64,000 nucleotides of DNA. Origin: Octopus vulgaris (Eukaryota). Location of the stretch: NCBI GenBank assembly GCA_951406725.2, contig OX597816.1, positions 94,798,001 through 94,862,000 on the forward strand. Reading direction: 5' to 3'. Positions 31,424 through 32,051 of this stretch are shown piece after piece. The notes under the pieces were generated by a model, which was not told where the DNA came from, did not search any database, and was given only the letters and a program-made list of their open reading frames with translations. A program made the position numbers and the translations under genes. Numbering within the stretch: position 1 is the first letter of the stretch; every line of letters begins with the position of its first letter.

Positions 31424-31517
31424 CAGATAGTCTTGGCTGAAGAGCTACAAATGGATTACTGTAAGTAATATTACATTTAATTCATTAATAGCGAAACAAT
31501 TGTCCCAAAATAATCTG
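31424..31517 (+). ncRNA. Type I hammerhead ribozyme, copy 1 (predicted cleavage after GUC at 31504)
   Basis: CUGAAGA at 31437-31443. Long stem II (gcta/tagc, aatggatta/taattcatt, tgtaa/ttaca). GAAAC-AAUU-GUC. Stem I cagat..ttgg / ccaa..atctg. Confidence 0.85.
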
Positions 31518-31957
31518 TATTTTTGTTATTTTTTATTTGCCCTGTCCGTGTGAGCTAACAGTCGTACCGGCTTTCATGGGAAACATGTATTTTTCGTGGT
31601 TGAAACCTCTTGGATTAACTGGTGCTAGAGTGATCAATATAGTGAACACTCTCTTATATTTATTTTGTGAAAATACTGTAATATGTTATAAAATATTATA
31701 GTAATCCAGGTTTCTCGTAGCACTAGGCCACTTGGTGTGGAATAAATATACTATTAAATTAGTATCTAATTCTCTCACCCTTATTAATTAATTATAATTA
31801 TGCTGCATTTATTTCTAAATGCTGTATTTGTTTTCCGTGAGAGTTTGGCGCGCTGTTGGTTGGGGCATTTGAATTATAACGTCCGATGTAATCGATTGAA
31901 CCGCACGCGTATTTATCGTTATGGTAAAATCTGGCGTGTGATTGAGTGGATTCCATC

Positions 31958-32051
31958 CAGATAGTCTTGGCTGAAGAGCTACAAATGGATTACTGTAAGT
32001 AATATTACATTTAATTCATTAATAGCGAAACAATTGTCCCAAAATAATCTG
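31958..32051 (+). ncRNA. Type I hammerhead ribozyme, copy 2 (predicted cleavage after 32038)
   Basis: Identical to copy 1, 534 nt downstream. Confidence 0.85.

Follow-up and report, generated by a model that had tools for sequence, protein, structure and literature searches.

The pair of hammerhead motifs considered here lies in a 64,000-nt stretch of the Octopus vulgaris genome (the window, with positions counted from its first letter) and is part of one larger insert, 31221-32324, set between (TA)n tracts (Table 1). The original prediction had described the hammerhead pair, which stands, but had missed the extent of the feature, as the larger insert also carries an inverted 117-nt arm; the fixed ends and the repeat family described below had likewise escaped it. 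The 534-nt unit from which the insert is built, numbered q1 to q534, has a longest stop-free frame of 69 aa when both strands are read, also as a circle.

Table 1. Position of the insert, its hammerheads and its surroundings in the window
Feature	Position	Strand	Remarks
Inverted 5' arm, unit q327 down to q211, 117 nt	31221..31337	-	Outer end is fixed end A; no hammerhead
Full 534-nt unit, q1-534	31338..31871	+	34% GC
Partial second unit, q1-455	31872..32324	+	Stops at fixed end B, against (TA)n
Type I hammerhead 1	31424..31517	+	Predicted cut after 31504
Type I hammerhead 2, identical to hammerhead 1	31958..32051	+	Predicted cut after 32038
Predicted released monomer, 534 nt	31505..32038	+	Span between the predicted cuts
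Site A in unit 1, q327-331	31664..31668	+	Family-wide 3' end point, inferred reverse-transcription start
Site B in unit 1, q455-459	31792..31796	+	Second family-wide 3' end point; A-to-B "tail" of ~130 nt
(TA)n-rich tract, left target flank	29620..31230	.	From sequence
(TA)n-rich tract, right target flank	32323..33652	.	From sequence
Interval between consecutive MADD-matching exons, ~36-kb intron, approximate edges	15521..51314	-	From exon mapping

The hammerheads had been placed inside an intron of MADD, and this is correct as to position but not as to orientation. MADD-matching exons lie on both sides of the insert, ending near 51315 and 15520, Pfam identifies the MADD death domain on the minus strand of the window, and among named homologues the best is a protein from Octopus, with 100% identity across 90% of the 81-residue query; a DENN family search did not reach MADD. 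Since MADD lies on the minus strand, its pre-mRNA runs antisense to the hammerheads and would not be cleaved by them. With this antisense and intronic placement the MADD context looks incidental, and no effect of the insert on MADD is suggested. The same intron contains broken fragments of LINE-type reverse transcriptase on both strands (35300-38500) and a cluster of short, non-repetitive plus-strand reading frames (24900-26590), the longer of which were scanned and gave no Pfam match; the cluster is possibly a decayed transposon. A weak 36-nt match to the unit at 22090-22125 was rejected, as it is without a hammerhead core.

The two motif copies are identical over 31424-31517 and 31958-32051, 534 nt apart, and each has the full catalytic core. 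In the first copy the core consists of CTGAAGA (31437-31443) and GAAA (31493-31496), stem I pairs 31424-31436 with 31505-31517 (11 of 13 pairs), and stem II (31444-31492) is 49 nt long, with 18 bp in three segments. Helix III has 2 bp and is closed by a palindromic AATT loop, and C17 falls at 31504 and 32038. The motif thus has the type I hammerhead core CUGANGA...GAAA...UH and three helices, helix I being open-ended, with compensatory changes among its relatives (below). On all of these structural points the original prediction was accurate: the identical 534-nt-spaced copies, the complete core, the long three-segment stem II and the 2-bp stem III with its AAUU loop. Its label "minimal" does not fit, given the 2-bp helix III and AATT loop. 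According to Cervera 2014, in the part of the paper available to us, "minimal" denotes hammerheads without helix III or loop 3, and the canonical type in metazoans has a 1-2 bp helix III and a palindromic loop; by its sequence, the octopus motif is of this canonical type and not of the minimal one. Likenesses to the hammerheads without helix III include a longer-than-usual helix II, predicted activity as a dimer and pairs on opposite strands, 100-700 bp apart. The helix II of those hammerheads has 7-8 bp, whereas that of the octopus motif runs to 18 bp in three segments, beside a retained 2-bp helix III with a palindromic loop.

In the folding ensemble, helix III of a single copy is predicted to be unstable (+1.0 kcal/mol, pairing probability 0.02). 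Two copies could pair as an 8-bp duplex (-6.4 kcal/mol), a form that is rare in the ensemble (0.05), and cleavage as a dimer through the palindromic helix III is a prediction by analogy. The predicted 534-nt monomer folds far better than its shuffles (z -8.4, with 0 of 100 as stable).

The check proposed in the original prediction, a search with Rfam covariance models, gave no hammerhead at E<=10 and only microsatellite-driven miRNA noise, despite a genuine motif; the long stem II is the probable cause of the miss. Nor is the extended stem II "atypical" in this genome, as had been supposed. A second loop type, GATC, with a stem II of 36-64 nt has at least 4,142 matches against 0 for the control and belongs to several unrelated families, and a long stem II is the norm in this octopus genome. 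Many of the GATC-loop hammerheads occur as opposite-strand pairs a few hundred bases apart. There are thus thousands of octopus hammerheads with a long stem II, and the one that was scanned escaped Rfam. Among cephalopods, the giant squid genome paper, in its accessible part, lists 235 Hammerhead_1 matches; ribozymes are unmentioned in those parts of the text and supplement of the octopus repeat annotation that term searches covered.

The exact pattern CTGAAGA-N35-60-GAAACAATTGTC has 848 matches genome-wide against 2 for the reversed control, and the motif is therefore not due to chance. The CTGATGA variant of the pattern has 140 matches against 1 for the control, and of 30 variant loci retrieved, 27 can be aligned to the unit, with identities mostly of 63-77%. 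We aligned 24 distinct, hand-chosen copies (3 young ones and 21 CTGATGA-variant relatives). Conservation of the core and of helix III is a consequence of how this set was built, and the shuffle control is raised by kinship among its members; 88% of the cells pair in this alignment, compared with 32-43% in slid controls. Both sides change in 12 of 29 pairs, among them 7 of 11 in stem I and 5 of 11 in the basal and middle parts of helix II. The core is intact in 198 of 204 copies of the young family, and the cores of the older subfamily are mostly intact with scattered changes among the copies listed, which we do not count as support. Compensatory stem changes across genomic copies, which the original prediction proposed to look for, are borne out, and the compensation of stems over lineages that are 63-80% identical implies selection on the ribozyme.

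Searching the genome with the unit yielded 842 candidates; the 40 that were scored contain 254 matches on many chromosomes, and identity is 97-100% among the 150 listed. The family is dispersed over many chromosomes at about 0.2% internal divergence, and its size is estimated at roughly 300 loci by extrapolation from the first 100 pattern matches on chromosome C1, which represent 35 loci. Two sets of arrays were examined. The first comprises the window's own array and 39 others chosen as best matches (40 in total, after one overlapping locus had been discarded), a choice biased to young, long arrays, and the second comprises the 31 remaining family loci on chromosome C1, taken in genome order.

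The arrays are plain tandems, with arms of up to 13 consecutive pieces, and the 3' ends of the family fall at two fixed places, A (q322-331) and B (q453-460), about 130 nt apart. In the first set 29 of the 40 arrays are inverted, with the arms head-to-head: 26 of these have one arm ending at A and the other at B (A/B), in the remaining three one of the ends is odd, and A/A and B/B pairs are absent. In 14 of the 26 A/B arrays each arm is longer than a unit. The 11 single-orientation arrays end at B (six), at A (four) or elsewhere (one). The second set has 18 inverted arrays among 31, 17 of them A/B, of which two are copies of one insertion. Over both sets 47 of 71 arrays are inverted and 43 of the 47 are A/B, again with none A/A or B/B. 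Older subfamilies have the same two end landmarks and a tail of roughly 105-110 nt. Target-site duplications (TSDs) of 14-15 bp bound 2 of the 40 arrays in the first set, and most of the others lie in (TA)n, where none is readable.

One head-to-head insertion is present twice, about 636 kb apart, in inverted orientation and with the same flank, and is probably a segmental duplication. At six loci different hammerhead-bearing elements adjoin or nest at (TA)n tracts, which suggests shared insertion hot spots. The window locus has variants at 31360, 31676, 31678 and 31701, present in both of its units and absent from the other 39 arrays sampled.

Dispersed tandems, a hammerhead in each unit, non-coding sequence, a GC content below 50% (34%) and, where readable, TSDs longer than 4 bp are the traits of a non-LTR retrozyme, and on these sequence traits the insertion is a young octopus non-LTR retrozyme. 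The suggestion of a cephalopod retrozyme is accordingly supported by a dispersed, tandem, non-coding family with a type I hammerhead per 534-nt unit. Tandem arrays are also typical of rolling-circle DNA elements, and a non-autonomous element of the Helitron type, in which the hammerhead would be a passenger, would produce them. Such an element does not explain the inverted arms, the two fixed ends, the long TSDs, the random 5' truncation or the covariation of the stems, and the same two-end geometry is found in ORF-bearing Penelope-like elements (PLEs) of the octopus genome. That the arrays are an artefact of assembly is countered by contigs from four public runs, including a second organism label, that carry the unit. 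The Helitron-type or artefact reading is largely refuted, and we give it only the slightest probability. The contigs of the four runs have the family-common letters at 31676, 31678 and 31701 and not the locus-private ones, and contigs drop rare variants. The runs are guessed to be RNA, and word depth over the unit reaches about 3,500 in one of them, but with some 850 genomic copies this is uninformative on expression. Words of the unit also occur under five other organism labels, and in the one compared the pieces are 90-99% alike.

A central question is what kind of template gave rise to the arrays. Haplotypes are shared between the arms in 27 of 27 testable arrays (two were dropped for short overlap), against 4.1 expected for arms from different arrays, and 22 arrays of the second set diverge by 0.002 both inside an arm and from arm to arm, compared with 0.030 from array to array; arm identity is read here from assembled arrays, and assembly-driven homogenisation would mimic it. 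Among array-by-variant cases with at least two covering units, the variant is in all units in 87, in a subset in 11 and in one unit in 70. Eight arrays have between them ten sample-private variants for which both arms are fixed, and 22 such variants are fixed array-wide in 15 arrays, where privacy holds within 40 of the roughly 300 loci only.

Local processes offer one account of such uniform arrays. Li et al. 2026 (bioRxiv 10.64898/2026.07.22.740005), in the accessible part of the preprint, link vertebrate retrozymes to PLE terminal repeats (pLTRs) and favour local amplification, so that a model is in print in which solo terminal repeats are multiplied by unequal crossing-over and homogenised by gene conversion. 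Neighbouring units with a common variant in four octopus arrays (L041, L060, L066 and L069) do suggest occasional unit-length duplication. Four features are not expected under that model, however: the haplotype match between inverted arms in every testable array, inversions with more than one unit on either side, the 14-15 bp duplications around arrays, and the spread of arrays of so low a divergence across many chromosomes. Moreover, 60 older-subfamily loci have no ORF-bearing parent nearby in searches with 781-aa and 574-aa PLE proteins, a query set that excludes the Hydra-like protein discussed below. We therefore consider local amplification a very unlikely origin of the family.

Fixation of a new variant in every unit would instead seem to need passage through a monomer. 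The 69 5' ends are scattered round the unit, with 2 near the predicted cut site, and 204 of 209 passes over that site are clean, none having an indel; such seamless passage is more in line with a ligated circle than with a linear RNA that has been cut. A linear cut monomer copied with template jumps is less likely. The inverted arm could also stem from a tight fold-back of the first cDNA, but this is disfavoured, since the 5' breakpoints appear unrelated in most of the 29 inverted-arm junctions; they are near-symmetric in two, and either arm can be the longer one. Array-wide fixation of variants and the scatter of 5' ends thus support, only indirectly, a putative release of monomers and their circularisation. 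The subset-shared variants count against a pure monomer model: four of the 11 cases read as alignment-edge artefacts, which leaves seven cases in five mosaic arrays. In three of these five arrays the subset variants fall on the core of the ribozyme or on its cut site (q105, q169 and q166-168), a post hoc observation on small numbers, and they may be uncut junctions carried in multimeric templates.

The mosaic arrays bear on a further possibility, namely that a PLE enzyme primed twice on a linear multimer transcribed from a parent array and left uncut, for which neither circles nor self-cleavage would be needed. The A/B asymmetry and the identity of the arms are explained equally well by such a template, the few mosaic arrays and 5' ends without a pile-up at the cut site are in keeping with it, and insertion by a lizard PLE is unimpaired by hammerhead mutants in vitro, where the hammerhead is dispensable and uncut RNA is the main substrate (Frangieh et al. 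2024, PMC11167929). What a linear multimer alone cannot do is fix a new variant in every unit, as in the 15 arrays with sample-private variants fixed throughout, and compensated stems across old lineages imply selection on a ribozyme for which it has no need. On balance this alternative appears unlikely.

We favour the reading that the arrays were written into (TA)n DNA by a PLE reverse transcriptase (RT) that primed twice on one, probably circular, 534-nt RNA, and consider it likely. The A/B pairing of ends, the variants shared between arms and the scattered 5' ends fit the copying of one monomer, probably a circle, primed twice. In the proposed course of events, a tandem locus would be transcribed on the hammerhead strand, and the hammerheads would cut the transcript, probably as a dimer through the palindromic helix III, to give monomers that would be ligated into circles. 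The PLE protein would then nick both strands of AT-rich DNA, one nick priming cDNA at site A and the second nick at site B. Each polymerase would run round the template a variable number of times, and the two 5'-truncated cDNAs would be joined to form the head-to-head array.

This geometry has a precedent in the insertions of PLEs. The accessible part of Craig et al. 2021 (PMC8557442) describes them as incomplete tandems that carry an inverted copy at the 5' side and, at one end only, a tail of 30-40 bp; how the one-sided tail and the tandem and inverted ends arise is named there as open. Frangieh et al. 2024 showed that the length of the tail equals the spacing of two RT start sites, with cleavage and extension of both DNA strands. 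The octopus arrays share with PLE insertions, as these papers present them, the partial tandems, the inverted and 5'-truncated copy, the tail on one end, the AT-rich or (TA)n targets and the two RT start sites; they differ in having no ORF, a tail of ~130 nt as opposed to 30-40 nt, and arms that can both be many units long. The A/B rule corresponds to the PLE tail signature, with a tail of ~130 nt.

Which PLE might have supplied the enzyme? The same octopus genome contains a young Hydra-like PLE with open frames of 980-1091 aa, RWK, DKT and CxCX5C motifs, C-terminal CxxC and CxH, Asn-rich inserts and a unit of ~4.6 kb, which gave 7,484 first-look candidates. Its hammerhead, ~200 nt upstream of the frame, likewise combines a long stem II with a helix III of 2 bp. 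The element targets (TA)n, its end points lie at about +35-41 and +150-162 nt relative to the cut, for a tail of ~120 nt, and its inverted insertions with both ends in view have one of each end clearly in six cases, an odd end in one and an ambiguous one in another. A Pfam search with the proteins gave no match, and the placement in the Hydra clade is a putative one by motifs. With that clade as described by Craig et al., the candidate shares RWK, DKT, CxCX5C, C-terminal CxxC/CxH, the hammerhead and (TA)n insertion; its ~4.6-kb unit (under 3 kb in the clade), Asn-rich inserts and ~120-nt tail set it apart. No significant nucleotide homology was found between the 534-nt unit and the Hydra-like PLE or its pLTR (z 0.1-1.1; 1.5-1.6 for an unrelated 781-aa family). 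Judged by its architecture, the Hydra-like PLE is, with reasonable though modest confidence, the likeliest donor of the enzyme.

The 781-aa PLE, a young family whose frame has RT and GIY-YIG domains and which also targets (TA)n, was judged a less likely partner, as its tail is ~30 nt, a motif scan found no hammerhead in it and it has no DNA similarity to the unit. It is preceded by a separate 479-aa open frame, and is to all appearances a two-frame, ribozyme-free PLE with a C-terminal endonuclease. Two same-strand hammerheads 2.8 kb apart at another locus were rejected as a PLE and represent a local duplication.

In coral, mussel and axolotl, non-LTR retrozymes are established together with their circRNAs, and PLEs have been proposed to mobilise them (Cervera and de la Pena 2020, PMC7229834); among the vertebrate retrozymes of Li et al. 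cleavage was seen in only 1 of 9 predicted in Xenopus. In the portions of these two papers accessible to us, the known elements and the octopus family are alike in being low-GC, non-coding tandems with a type I hammerhead per unit, a weak helix III, TSDs longer than 4 bp, a self-paired monomer and coexisting PLEs, and circle-templated copying by a PLE RT is the life cycle proposed for them as well. Reported units are 170-400 nt (Cervera) or 51-972 nt (Li), compared with 534 nt and a 49-nt stem II in octopus. The octopus family differs from them, as so described, in its cephalopod host, its head-to-head arrays, the two fixed ends and the identity of the arms; circRNA has been demonstrated for the elements of Cervera and de la Pena, whereas the octopus circle is predicted. 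The full-text literature searched, which includes few subscription papers and takes Craig et al. and Li et al. without their supplements, has no account of an octopus retrozyme or of two-ended, single-template retrozyme arrays.

So far, and within the sources accessible to us, the spread of animal retrozymes by way of a circle and a PLE RT has been proposed from co-occurrence and pLTR similarity. In this young octopus family with its long arrays, the products of insertion come close to recording the reaction itself, and its value is the unusually clean record of integration together with a named candidate enzyme. A more specific version of the mechanism, "double rolling-circle" integration, in which a Hydra-clade PLE RT would start on one circular ribozyme RNA at two dedicated sites ~130 nt apart, with both nicked DNA strands as primers, and both polymerases would roll round that circle, is one that we advance tentatively. 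The candidate enzyme, the template and the predicted products are all specified in one genome, and the proposed step is therefore directly testable. If true, this double rolling-circle mode would account together for the tail of PLEs, the inverted arm and the tandem arrays of retrozymes, and the octopus would provide the first named pair of PLE and retrozyme that can be rebuilt in vitro.
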